Shown: positions 30,046 through 54,580, numbered from the stretch's first letter. The stretch: DNA of 64,000 bases from Bacteroidales bacterium (GCA_034370405.1 JAXMKY010000161.1:28955-92954); one strand, 5' to 3'. Notes: a model not told the origin generated them from the sequence alone. Program-made: numbers and translations.

Positions 30046-30203
30046 AGAGGTTTGGTTTTGATGGAATATTAAATTCAAAGCTAACTACCTGTCACCATAT
30101 TATTTCATTACTGAACGATGGAACGGAATGCAAAGTTATCAATAAGAAGCTATTACTCATTCGGGTTTAACATTTCTTCAACAACCTATTAAGTCTGAAT
30201 AAC

Positions 30204-30244
30204 TTCAGACCTAACAGGTTTTGAAAACCTGTTAGGTCTGAAGG
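30204..30244. repeat. REP-like perfect palindrome CTTCAGACCTAACAGGTTTT-G-AAAACCTGTTAGGTCTGAAG
   Basis: 20-nt arms. It lies between convergent genes. Related copies are at 36921-36979 and 58329-58356. Confidence 0.8.
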
Positions 30245-35785: not shown

Positions 35786-36928
35786 ATGGAGAATTTTATC
35801 ATGCATAACCCCACCACCCTGCATTTTGGCAGGAGTGTTGTCGAAAAACTCGCACCCATTGCCAGCAGCTACGGTCGCCGTGTGTTGTTGGTCTATGGCA
35901 AAGGCTCCGCGAAAAGGAGTGGTGCTTATGTTGATGTGCTCAGGCAATTAAAAAACATTAATGCTGAGGTTTTTGAATTTTCGGGCATACAAAGCAACCC
36001 ACTCATCGAAGATGTGGATGCCGCTGCACAACTTGGCCGCGAAAAACAGGTGGATATGATTATTGCCATTGGCGGAGGCAGTGTGATTGATTCAGCCAAA
36101 GCCATATCCATCACAATGCCGGTAATCCATTCGGGGTGGGTTTTTTATGCAGGGAAAGCAAAACCATCAAAAGCCATTCCACTTATCGCTGTGCTCACAC
36201 TGGCAGCCACTGGCAGCGAAATGAATCAGTTTTCGGTAGTTCAGAACCATGCTGCTGGTATGAAAAACGGCTTCGGACACCCTTTGATGTATCCTGTCCA
36301 TTCATTCCTCGATCCCTCTTATACGCTCAGCGTTCCCAGAGATTACACCGCTTTTGGCATTGCCGACCTGATGGCGCATTGCCTCGAAAATTATTTTGGA
36401 CTAGGACATGCTCCACTTACCGACCACTTTATTTTTTCTATCCTTACTGAAGCCCTGGAAGCCGGCCCGCAATTACTCAACGACCTGGACAATTACGATC
36501 TCCGTGCCCGCATTATGTATGCTGCCACCATGGCACTAAACGGTTTGACTACATTTGGTAAAGGCATGGGCGACTGGGGGGTGCATAGCATCGGGCATCA
36601 CCTGTCGCTACTTTATGGATTGCCCCACGGTGCCACACTCACGGTTATGTATCCTGCCTGGATGAAATTATATCAGAGCGCCCTTGAACCTCAGCTGCTA
36701 AAATTAGGGAAGCACTTGTTTGGCCTTGAGGATGCGGGAGAAACCATCCAGCGGCTTGAATCGTTTTTCATTTCAATTGGCTGCCCTGTGCGCATAACCA
36801 ACAGCCTACCCGAAGGCATAGACCCCAAACCACTCATTGATCTAATGATACGTAATAGGGCGGGTGGCAATCATTATAAATTCTCGCCACTACAGCTGGA
36901 AAAGCTGATTGATCTAGCCCAGATCTAA
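35786..36928 (+). CDS. iron-containing alcohol dehydrogenase
   Basis: GGGSVIDSAKAI and the His-rich metal site of Fe-ADH. Confidence 0.85.
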   Translation: MENFIMHNPTTLHFGRSVVEKLAPIASSYGRRVLLVYGKGSAKRSGAYVDVLRQLKNINAEVFEFSGIQSNPLIEDVDAAAQLGREKQVDMIIAIGGGSVIDSAKAISITMPVIHSGWVFYAGKAKPSKAIPLIAVLTLAATGSEMNQFSVVQNHAAGMKNGFGHPLMYPVHSFLDPSYTLSVPRDYTAFGIADLMAHCLENYFGLGHAPLTDHFIFSILTEALEAGPQLLNDLDNYDLRARIMYAATMALNGLTTFGKGMGDWGVHSIGHHLSLLYGLPHGATLTVMYPAWMKLYQSALEPQLLKLGKHLFGLEDAGETIQRLESFFISIGCPVRITNSLPEGIDPKPLIDLMIRNRAGGNHYKFSPLQLEKLIDLAQI

Positions 36929-36979
36929 CAGGTTTCAAAAACCTGTTAGGTCTTGTGGTTTTTGAAACCTGTTAGGTCT
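36921..36979. terminator. REP-like palindrome plus an extra half-copy, acting as a bidirectional terminator
   Basis: agatctaacaggtttcaaaaacctgttaggtct is followed by ggtttttgaaacctgttaggtct. It sits between convergent genes whose stop codons lie at 36928 and 36985. Confidence 0.7.
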
Positions 36980-50050: not shown

Positions 50051-50124
50051 TCCTCCTTAGCTCAGTTGGTTAGAGCATCTGACTGTTAATCAGAGGGTCG
50101 CTGGTTCAAGTCCAGCAGGGGGAG
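50051..50124 (+). tRNA. tRNA-Asn (anticodon GTT)
   Basis: The cloverleaf was read by hand. Acceptor stem is TCCTCCT/AGGGGGA, the D-arm is AGCTCAGTTGGTTAGAGC, the anticodon loop is CTGTTAA and the T-arm is GCTGGTTCAAGTCCAGC. Confidence 0.9.
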
Positions 50125-50132
50125 CAAACAAG

Positions 50133-50157
50133 GGAGGTCTAGATGGCCTCTTTTTTT
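50133..50157 (+). terminator. tRNA terminator hairpin (GAGGTC-taga-tGGCCTC) plus T7
   Basis: Hairpin followed by a T-run. The same module recurs at 50565-50590 and 54476-54503. Confidence 0.7.
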
Positions 50158-50454
50158 ATGTATTACATCTACATCCTAAAATCGGAATCTGCAGGGAGTT
50201 ATTACGTTGGCCACACCGACGACCCTGTCCGGCGTTTGGCTGAGCACAACCATAGCGTACATCTTACTTTTACTTCTAAATATCGTCCCTGGATTATGGT
50301 TGCACTTTTTGAGTGCTCCGAAGATAGAAGAACTGCCCAAAAACTTGAAAACTTCATTAAACACCAGAAAAGTAAATCGTTTCTGGAGAAAATGATCCAT
50401 AGCGAAAAGTTCTCCGGAATATTAGCTCAGTTGGCTAAAGTCCCGAGAGCATAG
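50158..50454 (+). CDS. GIY-YIG nuclease family protein
   Basis: MYYIYILKSESAGSYYVGHTDDPVRRLAEHN is the GIY-YIG signature. The ATG at 50143 lies inside the terminator hairpin, so 50158 is preferred. Confidence 0.8.
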   Translation: MYYIYILKSESAGSYYVGHTDDPVRRLAEHNHSVHLTFTSKYRPWIMVALFECSEDRRTAQKLENFIKHQKSKSFLEKMIHSEKFSGILAQLAKVPRA

Positions 50455-50557
50455 CGATTCGGGGTTAATCAGAGGGTCGTCCCGAGAGCGTAGCGACAAT
50501 GTCCCGAGAATCCCGCACGTGCGAGATGATTCGGGATTCGGGATCCAGCAGGGGGAG
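50413..50557 (+). pseudogene. decayed tRNA-Asn-like copy with hairpin insertions
   Basis: It retains TTAGCTCAGTTGG, TTAATCAGAGGGTCG and TCCAGCAGGGGGAGCA. The anticodon-stem and T-arm segments are replaced by TCCCGAGAGC(A/G)TAGCGA..TTCGGG hairpins, and the 5' acceptor strand is not complementary. Confidence 0.7.
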
Positions 50558-50828
50558 CAAACAAGGGAGGCCTAGATGGCCTCTTTTTTTGGTTCTACCA
50601 CGAATTTACTGGAAATAGCGTATCTAATAGCTGGAAGACGGAAGTCGGAAGACCGAAGTAAATGCGATCGAGAAGTAATTACCATGATGTATAGAATCTA
50701 TTCTGAAAAGAAACTAAAGAAGTTTAATTTACTGACAAAGAACTATATAGATAGAAGAAAGAAGGTTATGTTGGGAATCTCCCGACTTCCGACTTCGGAC
50801 TTATAGCTGCATTAGAGTCTCACTCAAA

Positions 50829-50969
50829 TTATGGTAGAGCCTTTTTATTAAAGTAATAGATGTTTTCTTTTATCCAATGAATATAAGATTCTTCTGTTCT
50901 GTGGCTGTAATGACGTAATTCTATTTGGTCGTGAACCAGCTCTAACAATTTTTTTGGCTGTTGTATCAT
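50829..50969 (-). pseudogene. intI: integron-type tyrosine recombinase, N-terminal 46-codon remnant
   Basis: MIQQPKKLLELVHDQIELRHYSHRTEESYIHWIKENIYYFNKKALP-stop matches the N-terminal SAM-like domain pattern of IntI (L..VR..IR..HYS.RTE.AYV.W...FI.FH, recalled from memory). No catalytic domain follows. Confidence 0.6.
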
Positions 50970-51082
50970 TGTTTCATTTTTTTACTTAATTTAGCTGTAT
51001 AAATTTACAGAAAAATATGTTTGACAGTGTTTGCATAGCATATTTTTTATATAATAATTTGGAAATCAATTATTAAACAAAA

Positions 51083-51131
51083 GCCTAACGAGTGATAGAC
51101 TGCAAAATTGCAGTCTATTTAGTAGTTAGAC
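51083..51131 (+). other. attC-like site 0 (GCCTAAC ... GTTAGAC)
   Basis: The arms gcctaacgagtgatagactgc / gcagtctatttagtagttagac pair imperfectly. It lies between the intI remnant and the first cassette ORF. Confidence 0.6.
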
Positions 51132-51155
51132 TCATGGAATAGAAGGAGGTATTAC

Positions 51156-52760
51156 ATGGGATCACTCTACTTGAACCGACTTTCGGGAGGGGAGCGAGAG
51201 TCACTGATCGAGAAACTCCACCAGTCACAGAAAGGTTTCTGCTTCATCTGTGAGGAAGCAATAGACCTTATCTTGCACAAAGACGCCATTGACATTGACC
51301 ATGTCGTTCCAATAACAGTTGGGGGAAAAGACGATCCTGTCAACTTTGCCCTGGCTCACTCCAGTTGTAATCGGTCTAAGCAGGCTTCAAATCTCGAAGT
51401 GTCCAGGATCCTACGCCGGTTTGGCAAGTTAAAGGAGAAGACCGGACTGGAGAATCGCAACCCGAACCTAGATGATGTGCTATGCCTTTATGGTGGATCC
51501 AAGTATGAGATGTCTTTGAGCGTGGAGGACGAATTAATAAAGGTGTCTCTATCCGAAATGGGTCGAAATGCAGTCTTTACTTCCTCCCTGTATGCAGATG
51601 ATCTCAGCGGATTCACATACTTTTTTGCAAAGCTCCCGATTGAATACTTACATCACGACGAGAAGATAAATCCCCGATCCATCGGTCAGAATATCTCCAA
51701 GTTGATCGAAGAGTTTTACCAGAAGCGCCCGCAGCTTCATGTATCACTTGGTTGGATAACCCTGCCAGATAACGGTAAGTGTCGAGTACGCATTTTTGAT
51801 GGACAACACAAGGCGGCTGCTCAAGTGCTTCTTGGTGTCAAAGAATTGCCTGTCAGAATTTTCGTGAACCCAGATGCGGATACCCTCCTTACAACGAATA
51901 CAAATGCCGGAACCACCCTGCGGCAAGTGGCTTTCGACAAGTCTGTTCAGCGACGTCTTGGTAGTGCTTTATATGGCGACAGAGTTGACCGTTACAAGGG
52001 AGAATTGGGACTGTCGGAAGACGATTTCAGTTTCTCTGAACGAGACCTGGTCAAGTTCTTCAAGGGCGAGTCCCGTGAGATGAAGAAGTACATCCTTGAT
52101 GATGTGAGGAATAGCATAACTCACAATCCGGAAAACAAGCTAAAGGATTACATTGATTTTGGAGGAAGAGGGAAAGAGAAACCCTTGTCCTATTCATCAA
52201 TCGAGAAAACCTTTTACTCGTTCTTCATATACCAAGAGGTGCTTGATACGTCCATAAATTACCAACTTGAAAGTGGTGAAAATCCGCGGGAGCTTGAGAA
52301 ACAGCAAATTTTGGAACTCATAAACGTAATTGCTGAAGAAATCTATATGGGAAAATTCGACAGCGACATAGGAACATACAGAATTGAGAACCGCCTACAG
52401 GCGGGAGAATCATTGCCACTGGATCATGTCCGAGCATTTCGCATGAGCAAAGAAGAGATTCTGTGGAACTGGCTGAAGTATATATCGCAGATTATCCGCA
52501 ACTATTTCATCATGCAGGGTATCCCGATAGATGAAAACAAGTTGTTTCAGTACAAATTTCCTCTGCCACTGTGGGAGCGACTACGCATGTTCGTTCGCAA
52601 TTTCCGCAATCTTCCCCTGTGGTCAAACATTGCTCTTTCCTCTACTGTTTTTGGTGGAAAGCAAAACTATGATTTTTGGCAGTATGTCTTTGAGAAGGGC
52701 AAGACACAACAGGGACAACAGGTTTTGCCAGAGCCGATCAACTTGATGAAGATGATTTGA
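51156..52760 (+). CDS. HNH endonuclease fused to a DGQHR/DndB-like (ParB-fold) domain, cassette 1
   Basis: The N-terminus [10 protein letters not shown]...[30 protein letters not shown] is an HNH motif. The mid-region [13 protein letters not shown] is a DGQHR-type motif. A strong SD AAGGAGGT lies 5 nt upstream. Confidence 0.7.
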
Positions 52761-52800
52761 GCCCAAGAAGAAATGAAAAAGATGGCGGTGTGGAGCCTTT

Positions 52801-52861
52801 GTCTAACCAGTCGCTACAGCCGACCTCGCTATCGCTCGGCGGCTTAGCTCAATCGTTAGGC
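52801..52861 (+). other. attC-like site 1 (GTCTAAC ... GTTAGGC)
   Basis: 61 bp. The ends match RYYYAAC and GTTRRRY, and the internal arms pair with bulged bases. Confidence 0.7.
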
Positions 52862-52899
52862 TACATGAATTAGTAACAATATTTATAGGAGAAGGAACT

Positions 52900-53091
52900 A
52901 TGGGGACAAAAATGACTATGATTTACTGGAAAGGTGAGAAATTTTGGCTTGGGAAGCTTCTTGAGCATCCAGAAATCATGACACAGGGGAAAACTCTTGA
53001 GGAATTGGAGGAAAATATTAAGGATGCATATCTCTTGATGGCTATGGATGAGGTTCCAGAAGAACATCAAGTGAAAGAAATTGCTATATGA
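52900..53091 (+). CDS. hicB: HicB-family antitoxin, cassette 2
   Basis: 63 aa; YWKGEKFWLGKLLEHPEIMTQGKTLEELEENIKDA is HicB/UPF0150-like. Confidence 0.7.
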   Translation: MGTKMTMIYWKGEKFWLGKLLEHPEIMTQGKTLEELEENIKDAYLLMAMDEVPEEHQVKEIAI

Positions 53092-53267
53092 AGCGGAAAG
53101 AATTTGTCCGTCAACTCGTAAAAGATGGCTGTGTTTTTTTGAGACCAGGAGCTAATCACGACCTTTACATGAATCCTGTTACTGGCAAGAAACAACCTGT
53201 TCCAAGGCACACAGAGATTGATAACAGTTTAGCAAAACATATCAGAAAATATTTGGGGTTGAAGTAG
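53088..53267 (+). CDS. hicA: HicA-family mRNA interferase toxin (59 aa, below the ORF-track cutoff)
   Basis: My own translation is MKRKEFVRQLVKDGCVFLRPGANHDLYMNPVTGKKQPVPRHTEIDNSLAKHIRKYLGLK. The start overlaps the hicB stop (ATATGA). Confidence 0.75.
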   Translation: MKRKEFVRQLVKDGCVFLRPGANHDLYMNPVTGKKQPVPRHTEIDNSLAKHIRKYLGLK

Positions 53268-53336
53268 CCTTCTTCTAAGTAAGGGAAATTGCAGGAATTG
53301 TTGGGTCAAACCTAGAATATACATTTTACAAACAAA

Positions 53337-53395
53337 GCCTAACCATTCATTCGGGCCGACCGCTTTACAGCGGCGGCTGAATTCAGTCGTTAGGC
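53337..53395 (+). other. attC-like site 2 (GCCTAAC ... GTTAGGC)
   Basis: 59 bp. It shares the internal GCCGACC / CGGCGGC arms with site 1. Confidence 0.7.
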
Positions 53396-53436
53396 GCAGT
53401 TTTCACACGAACCATTCAAGAGAAAGGAGATTTAGC

Positions 53437-54003
53437 ATGAACCGCAAAACACTGTTCGCACTCATCGTTGTCCCGCTACTCGTCGGGCTACTCCTGTACG
53501 CATTCTGTGGCCTCGGGCACCTTCTCGGGAGTGCATTGGGGATCCCTGCCAGGCTTGGTCTGCCGCTGGCGTTCCGGTTCACAGGCCTCCTTGCGCTGGC
53601 TGTCGGGTTCGGCATACTTGCCTGGCTCTTTAAGCATCGCAGTCCATTCGATGTCATCGTCTCGACTTACATCACGCTGACCAAGAGCCTGACCAAGGTG
53701 GGTCTCGACGAGCACGCAGTCAGATCAGAGCATCTCGTCATCACCGGTCCGCATCGCTTCGTCCGGCACCCCCTTTACTCGGCGGTAATCATTCTCGTCG
53801 CAGGTTGGTGGCTTGTCTTGGACTACACCTTCCTGCTCTTCTGCGTCGGTTTTCTCACTGTGTGGTTCAACCTCGTCGTCGCACCGTTCGAGGAGCGAGA
53901 ACTGCGAGCTCTCTTCGGCGCCCAGTATGAGGCCTACGCACGGGCAACCCCACGCTTCCTTCCTTCGATCCGACGGCGTGGGAATGCGATTACCGACAAA
54001 TGA
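53437..54003 (+). CDS. isoprenylcysteine carboxyl methyltransferase (ICMT/PEMT) family membrane protein, cassette 3
   Basis: VITGPHRFVRHPLYSAVIIL...FEERELRALFGAQYEAYARATPRF. GC-rich relative to its surroundings. Confidence 0.75.
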   Translation: MNRKTLFALIVVPLLVGLLLYAFCGLGHLLGSALGIPARLGLPLAFRFTGLLALAVGFGILAWLFKHRSPFDVIVSTYITLTKSLTKVGLDEHAVRSEHLVITGPHRFVRHPLYSAVIILVAGWWLVLDYTFLLFCVGFLTVWFNLVVAPFEERELRALFGAQYEAYARATPRFLPSIRRRGNAITDK

Positions 54004-54054
54004 TGAGTTCTACGGATCTCCCCCAAGACGACGCACTCGCACCGCCCCTGCAAT

Positions 54055-54180
54055 ACCTAACAACTCGCTGCAGACCCGGCTGGCGTGCGGAAACGCAGGC
54101 GTGCCTTGCCCGCCGGAATGCGCGAGAATGGGTGGGCCGTTGCTTGAGCCGCCGGGCAGCTGAGCTCGGGGCCGTTAATA
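54055..54180 (+). other. attC-like site 3 (ACCTAAC ... GTTAATA), long and GC-rich
   Basis: 126 bp. The arms acctaacaactcgctgcagacccggc / gccgggcagctgagctcggggccgttaat pair imperfectly. It is the last site before the GIY-YIG fragment. Confidence 0.5.
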
Positions 54181-54221
54181 CTGAAATTATTACTGTCTTT
54201 TATTCATGGCAATTGGGCATA

Positions 54222-54395
54222 ACTTCTAAATCTCGCCCCTGGATAATGGTTGCACTTTTTGAATGTTCCGAAGATAGAGGAACTGCCCAAAAACTTGAAA
54301 ACTTCATTAAACACCAGAAAAGTAAATCGTTTCTGGAGAAGATGATCAATAGCGAAAAGTTCTCCGGAATATTAGCTCAATCGGTTATCCCGTAA
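54222..54395 (+). pseudogene. GIY-YIG nuclease, 3' fragment (second copy, 5' half missing)
   Basis: TSKSRPWIMVALFECSEDRGTAQKLENFIKHQKSKSFLEKMINSEKFSGILAQ is near-identical to residues of the 50158 gene. There is no GIY-YIG motif region upstream. Confidence 0.8.
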
Positions 54396-54469
54396 GTGCG
54401 AGACGAAGTCTCGGGATTAACCAGAGGGTCGTCCCGAGAGCGTAGCGATTCGGGATGCAGCAGGGGAAG
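54363..54469 (+). pseudogene. second decayed tRNA-Asn-like copy
   Basis: TTAGCTCAATCGG, an ATCCCG...CGGGAT hairpin, TTAACCAGAGGGTCG, a TCCCGAGAGCGTAGCGATTCGGGA hairpin, then GCAGCAGGGGAAGCA and the terminator module. Confidence 0.65.
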
Positions 54470-54580
54470 CAATCAAGGGAGGTTTAGATGGCCTCCTTTT
54501 TTTATGTGCTATATTTGTGTTCTTCTTTCCCCAATTATCATTACAATAAACTTAACTTTGTTTTTTCTGAAACAAGGTCT

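Follow-up and report, generated by a model that had tools for sequence, protein, structure and literature searches.

The 64,000-nt stretch of DNA analysed here (Bacteroidales bacterium, GCA_034370405.1, JAXMKY010000161.1:28955-92954; referred to below as the window, with positions counted from its first nucleotide) carries, between positions 50,829 and 54,223, the remnant of what is very probably a decayed integron. A 5' fragment of an integron integrase gene (intI) lies there on the minus strand, next to a recombination site of the attI type, which is followed on the plus strand by three gene cassettes. A first-pass annotation, made from the sequence, had described this segment as a degenerate integron with an intI remnant and four co-oriented attC-like sites delimiting three cassettes. 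The features recognised in the present study are given below (bit scores and E values refer to R1, an attC covariance model described later in the text).

50829..50969, minus strand: 5' remnant of intI, an open reading frame (ORF) of 46 codons, of which codons 1-43 (50842-50969) are homologous to intI
50970..51082, no strand assigned: intI-attI intergenic region, conserved, with a promoter-like block at 51025-51062
51083..51131, plus strand: site 1, assigned as an attI-type platform site from its conservation beside the intI start and the variable sequence after its GTT
51126..52855 (1730 bp), plus strand: cassette 1, with an ORF at 51156-52760 (534 amino acids, aa; N-terminal HNH domain, uncharacterised C-terminal region)
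52801..52861, plus strand: site 2, attC of cassette 1 (52.0 bits, E 3.9e-10, full length)
52856..53389 (534 bp), plus strand: cassette 2, with a HicB-like 63-aa ORF (52900-53091) overlapping a HicA ORF (53088-53267)
53337..53395, plus strand: site 3, attC of cassette 2 (58.8 bits, E 8.3e-12, full length)
53390..54174 (785 bp), plus strand: cassette 3, with an ORF at 53437-54003 (188 aa) for a PEMT/ICMT-type membrane methyltransferase
54055..54180, plus strand: site 4, putative long degenerate attC of cassette 3, with an exact R'' box (ACCTAAC) and a non-consensus R' box (GTTAATA)
54175..54223, plus strand: 49 bp ending in an R''-like GCATAAC, either left over from a fourth unit or forming the conserved right end of the array

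The 46-codon ORF and its translation were confirmed exactly as first annotated, as was its proposed origin from the N-terminus of an integron integrase. In Pfam the stub matched PF13495, the N-terminal SAM-like integrase domain (E 2e-7), which is common to several recombinase families. Two integron integrase models were its sole matches in NCBIfam (TIGR02249, E 4e-6, positions 2-36 of 315), and none of the Xer models of that collection matched; the score on TIGR02249 was 26 bits against a cut-off of 265, a value beyond the reach of such a fragment. The decisive evidence came from the DNA level. Window positions 50842-51129 are 93% identical to the intI start and upstream region of a metagenome contig (L095), and the stub is 95% identical to the IntI of this contig over aa 1-43 (tblastn). 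The intI frame of L095 is 321 codons long and is interrupted once, by a TAA at codon 21. With this codon restored, its product scored 442.9 bits on TIGR02249, far above the cut-off, and 152 and 140 bits on the XerC and XerD models, far below their cut-offs (both about 330); it also carries the RRHH-containing additional segment of IntI. A profile made from the stub together with close relatives was run against a set of 1.8 billion representative proteins, and TIGR02249 was the top model, well above XerC/D, for all ten matches examined, including the longest. On this evidence the stub derives from an IntI gene and not from a Xer or phage integrase gene.

The homology to L095 stops at 50842, i.e. 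the window leaves intI after codon 43, and the last three codons and the stop of the 46-codon ORF are unrelated DNA past this breakpoint. No further intI sequence, including the C-terminal part of IntI, was detected in the 64-kb window, so that codons 1-43 are all that is left of the intact gene of a complete integron. A deletion has very probably taken away everything past this point, and no integrase can be made at the locus.

A scan of the window with Rfam found the tRNA alone; Rfam contains no attC family, and a covariance model was therefore built from class 1 integron sites. A strict regular expression combining motif and fold had been dropped: it recovered sites 1-3, but also palindromes resembling repetitive extragenic palindromic (REP) sequences, and most attC sites of the related contigs escaped it, for which reasons the covariance model was used in its place. 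The seeds of this model (R1) were nine inter-cassette attC sites from two clinical class 1 integron plasmids (pNECK1 and pYKBP039), with nothing taken from the window; long central regions were trimmed, the sites were aligned and the structure was checked (82% of the cells of the seed alignment were paired, vs 25-42% with the partner columns slid). The whole window was then scanned on both strands with filters off. Sites 3 and 2 were highly significant, both on the plus strand only and with precisely the coordinates of the first-pass annotation, and beyond them nothing was found below E 0.5, the next match being site 1 (E 0.56).

In their bottom-strand folds, sites 2 and 3 show an R box, an unpaired spacer of 6+5 nt and an L stem, with two single-base bulges (T and G) in site 2 and comparable ones in site 3; bulges and spacer thus agree with the annotated attC layout. 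Sites 1, 2 and 3 match the consensus of both end boxes exactly (R'' RYYYAAC, R' GTTRRRY). BLAST comparison of site 3 with plasmids gave two clinical class 1 integrons (pNECK1 and pYKBP039), which matched 97-100% of the site with 75-78% identity; these matches fall exactly between cassettes, in cassette orientation. The GCCGACC/CGGCGGC arms, which had been attributed to sites 1 and 2 and taken as a homogeneity typical of chromosomal arrays, are in fact common to sites 2 and 3. Since clinical class 1 integrons have these arms in their attC sites as well, the arms provide no evidence of chromosomal-array homogeneity.

The model and the folds show sites 2 and 3 to be canonical, co-oriented attC sites. 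As for the proposal of four attC sites, the coordinates and end motifs of all four were as annotated (with the non-consensus R' box in site 4), but its attC assignment was corroborated by R1 for sites 2 and 3 only, site 1 being of the attI type and site 4 weak. Similarly, sites 2, 3 and 4 do lie directly 3' of a plus-strand ORF (40, 69 and 51 nt, respectively, from stop codon to site start), while no plus-strand ORF precedes site 1; and arms pairing with bulges were seen in sites 2 and 3, while site 1 is perfectly paired and site 4 has such arms only in a suboptimal fold. The two model-significant sites are 476 bp apart and no C-terminal IntI is present in the window, which corresponds to a cluster of attC sites lacking integron integrases (CALIN), as judged with the surrogate model R1 and not with IntegronFinder. 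Each of the co-oriented cassettes ends in an attC, although that of cassette 3 (site 4) is recognised by motif and junction only.

Two REP-like palindromes (CCTAACAGGTTT...AAACCTGTTAGG, with CTAAC/GTTAG ends) at 30165-30237 and 36923-36977 imitate the end boxes of attC and would be false positives in a motif-only search; both scored below 11 bits on R1. Together with the broad distribution of PF13495, they are what could be cited in favour of a different origin of the whole segment, with a generic Xer or phage tyrosine recombinase as the source of the stub and REP-type repeats or terminators between genes as the source of the palindromes. This has next to no probability, and we treat it as refuted by (i) the family models (no Xer match; integron integrases in all ten profile matches examined), (ii) the scores of the full-length homologue, and (iii) the R1 scan, in which sites 2 and 3 reached 52-59 bits.

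Site 1 has the layout GCCTAAC / 5 nt / perfect 10-bp palindrome with a 4-nt loop / 6 nt / GTTAGAC. It folds into a perfect stem with neither bulges nor extrahelical bases, and its R1 score (14.2 bits) is similar to that of its opposite strand (12 bits). About 110 bp separate it from the intI start codon and no ORF lies between, which is the place occupied by attI in integrons. Relatives of the stub were collected first by a protein search and then by one metagenome scan with a 17-mer of site 1, filtered by BLAST; the scan yielded about 25 related arrays with differing cassettes. The intergenic region and site 1 are kept up to the GTT in about 27 instances, most of which diverge just past it into differing sequence, usually with a ribosome-binding site (RBS) and an ATG (in a few, i.e. 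L128, L149/L141 and L153/L134, the GTT itself is missing). The cassette variation anticipated in the first-pass annotation was thus observed, with different cassettes following the same site 1. In eight related contigs R1 found co-oriented attC matches downstream of site 1. The cassette attC sites of those arrays are heterogeneous, while site 1 is preserved along with the intI start and the intergenic stretch; it is also present upstream of an intact sister intI in two contigs (L161 and L162).

The retention of site 1 with the integrase, the probable crossover at G51125|T51126 and the variable cassettes to its right are the behaviour of a primary insertion site. Sequence comparison thus assigns site 1, which adjoins intI and has its insertion point at G|TT, to the attI-type platform sites and not to the cassette attC sites. 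Two observations weigh against this assignment: the attC-like outline of site 1 (R boxes around a palindrome) and its occurrence three times within one array, which a simple attI does not explain. That array (contig L139, Ga0265292_1006422, positions 452-3259) contains three tandem, mutually divergent modules, each composed of an intI stub, the promoter region and site 1, with differing cassettes after each; two of the three are preceded by an attC and so occupy cassette positions. (A small inverted-repeat insertion splits the first intI remnant of this array.) Moreover, some contigs keep site 1 with little or no platform to its left. Site 1 might accordingly be a fourth attC, belonging to an empty or promoter-bearing cassette, the true attI having been lost with the rest of the platform. 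We consider this quite unlikely, in view of the lack of extrahelical bases and the near-equal scores of both strands, the conservation of the site with the intI start next to heterogeneous cassette attC sites, its attI position, and the same arrangement beside an intact intI.

With a similarly low probability, site 1 could be a hairpin-type attI, a miniature attC without bulges that the integrases of this clade would also accept in the role of a cassette site, in which case the promoter-attI module with its dead stub could be excised and re-inserted like a cassette. If true, this would explain the three tandem modules of L139, the approximately 90% conservation of a 290-bp module in otherwise unrelated contexts, and the continued turnover of cassettes next to integrases that are broken. 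Only the palindromic attI and the tandem modules make the case unusual. The conserved sequence of site 1 also provides a practical probe for the cassette pool of this integron lineage.

An identical intact IntI (P0152) was found with two types of upstream region: one with a site-1-type attI (L161 and L162) and another (L160, L163 and L167) that parts from the first at about 37 bp from the start codon and carries no site-1-type attI.

Within the intergenic region, the block at 51025-51062 reads CAGTGTTTGCA ... TATAAT/TAATTTGG, and these blocks are kept across about 25 contigs. It is a candidate for the cassette promoter (Pc) and/or the intI promoter, and it fits the Bacteroidetes promoter consensus (-33 TTTG / -7 TAnnTTTG). 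Against this stands the result of a sigma-70 scan, a type of search that does not cover Bacteroidetes-type promoters: its match (TTTGCA-17-AATAAT at 51030-51058) was not above chance. The promoter is the weakest step of the mechanism proposed below.

The ORF of cassette 1, whose ATG is preceded by an RBS (GAAGGAGG), encodes a protein with an HNH domain (Pfam, E 1.6e-7; PADLOC PtuB-like HNH, E 3e-6). Its C-terminal region contains a DGQHK motif and gave a weak DGQHR match (E 0.036); searches with this protein yielded no function beyond the HNH domain. In cassette 2, the second ORF matched HicA_toxin (PF07927) with 33.8 bits against a Pfam cut-off of 27, and the only matches of the 63-aa ORF among PDB sequences were two HicB antitoxins, both weak (E 0.2). 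The cassette carries a toxin-antitoxin pair composed of HicA and a HicB-like partner of weak similarity. Toxin-antitoxin cassettes are a known trait of chromosomal arrays (PMC13108822). The ORF of cassette 3 matched PEMT (Pfam, E 2.8e-8) and isoprenylcysteine methyltransferase (NCBIfam, E 2.6e-11). The G+C content of this cassette (0.56-0.61, vs about 0.43 around it) was counted as foreign composition.

At the right end of the array, site 4 may form a 15-bp L''/L' stem with bulges, and its 5' end (CTAACAACTCGCTGCAG) and the segment CTGAGCTC resemble the attC of blaOXA cassettes. Three results speak against its being an attC: (i) the canonical fold (-18.7/-20.6 kcal/mol, vs an optimum of -27.8/-26.7 kcal/mol) is 6-9 kcal/mol less stable than an internal alternative, (ii) the fold predicted for the site is no better than that of shuffled sequence (z -0.4), and (iii) R1 fails to detect the site. 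On the other hand, a different cassette (rhodanese) of contig L128 ends in an R1-detected attC (35.3 bits) finishing GTTAATT, after which L128 carries the same 49 bp as window positions 54175-54223 (87% identity to L128 2825-2879). The presence of these 49 bp behind a different cassette supports the G|TT junction of site 4, which we class as a weak attC. An alternative 3' end at 54139 (GTTGCTT) was rejected because the L128 homology begins at the GTT of 54174. In L128, the GCATAAC box opens a further attC-like site; in a three-way alignment, the homology of the window changes at 54222-54224 from L128 to the interior of a GIY-YIG gene copy.

Every close copy of this intI open to assessment is broken, with lesions that differ:

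L095: nonsense codon
L168-L170: one frameshift, seen in three samples
P0155/P0156: C-terminal frameshift
L110: deletion plus frameshifts
L085 and P0006: frameshifts
L128: internal deletion that fuses codon ~33 with the final ~18 codons
window, L083, L084, L086, L126 and L115: 5' intI stubs differing in length

An initial protein search from the stub, which returned truncated ORFs only, had given the impression that the whole family is dead. This was corrected when a search with the long L095 ORF revealed an intact sister integrase of 319 aa, 80% identical to that of L095, in L161 and L162. The loss of intI at the present locus is one case of repeated independent inactivation in this integrase clade. 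The platform module was absent from viral contigs and from the plasmid collection searched. Directly 3' of the broken intI, on the opposite strand, two of the relatives carry a group II intron reverse transcriptase/maturase gene (TIGR04416, 373 bits; L095 4186-5502, minus strand, and L168 10772-12088, minus strand).

First cassettes differ in nearly every contig although every assessable close intI copy is broken, the intact sister integrase uses the same kind of site, and the attC sites of cassettes 1 and 2 are canonical in form. It is thus possible that the array of the window is not dead but a satellite, whose cassettes are shuffled in trans by an intact integrase encoded elsewhere in the genome. 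Our search for intI, which covered the 64-kb window, found no other copy there, a result that counts against a trans-acting enzyme as far as the window reaches. Furthermore, two other contigs of the same sequence (contig JAUXXY010000009.1 of a metagenome-assembled genome, MAG, and a contig of the Logan assembly) show identical cassette order, and cassette turnover before each independent inactivation explains the differing lesions equally well. Shuffling in trans therefore appears unlikely, though less so than the reading of site 1 as a fourth attC.

The segment lies downstream of tRNA-Asn (50051-50125) and is bracketed by two copies (50126-50590 and 54222-54502; 88-93% identical, the second 5'-truncated) of a unit with three parts: a small GIY-YIG ORF, a degenerate tRNA-Asn-like sequence with CCCGAGA...TCGGG hairpins in place of its anticodon stem and T arm, and the terminator hairpin of the tRNA. 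Such a unit may be a tRNA-linked mobile or duplicating element. A distant GIY-YIG ORF, 33% identical to that of the window, was noted just past the first cassette of another array of the same family (L144 1628-1885, minus strand). Two further features adjoin the remnant:

50591..50841, no strand assigned: left junction DNA, context outside the integron, between the tRNA-like repeat and the intI breakpoint
54488-57388, plus strand: complete MmeI-family (type IIL) restriction-modification gene, in which the five MmeI domains are all present, immediately behind the second tRNA-like repeat

The left junction DNA includes a 180-bp element (50629-50808) with 30-nt imperfect terminal inverted repeats rich in GGAAGTCGGAAG, situated 33 bp from the intI breakpoint; a second copy turned up neither in the window nor in the other loci retrieved. 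These surroundings suggest that the remnant may be a passenger in a rearrangement hotspot after tRNA-Asn, with both of its ends cut by events involving the GIY-YIG/tRNA-like units and not by integron-specific processes. The bracketing copies, the position of the right junction inside the second GIY-YIG gene, the inverted-repeat element near the left breakpoint and the adjacent restriction-modification gene all fit this possibility, which complements the decay of an integron and does not replace it. Nevertheless, the mechanism remains hypothetical, no second example of the junction was found, and the same intI is truncated in unrelated contexts without these repeats; we therefore hold a hotspot origin of the two ends to be a minority option, albeit the likeliest of the alternatives considered.

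The host is a member of the Bacteroidia: among the matches listed for the neighbouring CcsBA protein, the best came from Draconibacterium, Prolixibacteraceae, Maribellus and other Bacteroidota, with at most 52% identity. No same-flank relative was found (in the CcsBA scan, among the matches listed; exact-protein look-ups gave the same-sequence contigs L001, L002 and L159 or nothing), and hence cassette gain or loss at exactly this locus is not shown, which is a further point to be set against the interpretation of the locus as an integron array.

Taken together, the data make it very probable that the locus is a decayed chromosomal integron of a member of the Bacteroidia, with intI cut to a 43-codon stub, an attI-type site, three co-oriented cassettes and a 49-bp stump of a fourth unit. 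The CALIN-like array with an intI stub in a Bacteroidota-type chromosome, as proposed in the first-pass annotation, is in this respect upheld. The order is attI, cassette 1 (51126-52855), cassette 2 (52856-53389), cassette 3 (53390-54174) and the stump. An IntI of this lineage would once have inserted the three cassettes at G51125|T51126, each with its own attC (sites 2, 3 and 4), and transcription of the cassettes would start in the conserved block at 51025-51062. Barring an integrase that works in trans, the array would now be frozen, and the HicAB-like toxin-antitoxin cassette may help to keep it by disfavouring its loss.

In Xanthomonas, integrons are fixed at ilvD. Chromosomal pseudo-integrons with inactivated intI (Nemergut et al. 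2008, PMC2426708), like the integrons of that genus, resemble the present locus in that intI is disabled while attI and the cassette array persist, in the independent lesions within one integrase clade, and in the presence of toxin-antitoxin cassettes in the arrays. They differ in that a frameshifted or nonsense-mutated full-length gene is found there, whereas 43 codons are left here, and in that the host here is a Bacteroidia MAG and the locus varies between contigs instead of being fixed. An excess of intI pseudogenes and independent lesions within one clade are already on record, and the many lesions in the clade analysed here add a data point for repeated selection against active integrases (PMC2426708).

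As in CALIN (Cury et al. 2016, PMC4889954), two or more attC sites occur within 4 kb and an intact integrase is absent. A recognisable intI pseudogene was reported near 15 of 279 CALIN, with detection by a C-terminal profile (PMC4889954). In contrast to a typical CALIN, the N-terminal stub and attI are still attached here, so that the origin of a CALIN-like array by intI loss is directly visible; software seeking the IntI C-terminal domain would nonetheless label the locus a CALIN.

Sites 2 and 3 share with the attC sites of mobile class 1 integrons (the ester-cyclase cassette of pNECK1, the hypothetical cassette of pYKBP039 and blaOXA cassettes) the R''/L''/L'/R' layout, the AGCCGAC...GCGGCT arms and two extrahelical positions, and site 4 shares 5' and 3' arm sequence with the blaOXA attC. 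Unlike these, the sites of the window are chromosomal and lie beside a different integrase lineage, the long central region of site 4 favours an alternative fold, and the cassettes carry no resistance genes.

Classical attI sites such as attI1 have simple-site L and R boxes plus direct repeats (DR1/DR2) and no long palindrome. Site 1 is like them in adjoining the intI start, in its crossover at G|TT of the GTTRRRY box, in its conservation with its own integrase lineage and in the AAACAAAAG run before the left box. It differs in that 35 bp separate its two inverted boxes, between which lies a perfect 10-bp palindrome that makes the site look like a bulge-free miniature attC; no direct repeats were identified.

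The first-pass annotation had assumed that such arrays are sparsely documented in this phylum. This holds for complete genomes, in which integrons are rare or almost absent in Bacteroidetes (PMC9024848), but Bacteroidota are already among the listed integron hosts (PMC8618304, PMC9668308). Integrons with a dead integrase, CALIN and Bacteroidota integrons are all on record; the locus is therefore an ordinary, well-documented case of known decay, which leaves the understanding of integrons unchanged and adds a clearly resolved integron remnant to a phylum with almost none in complete genomes.

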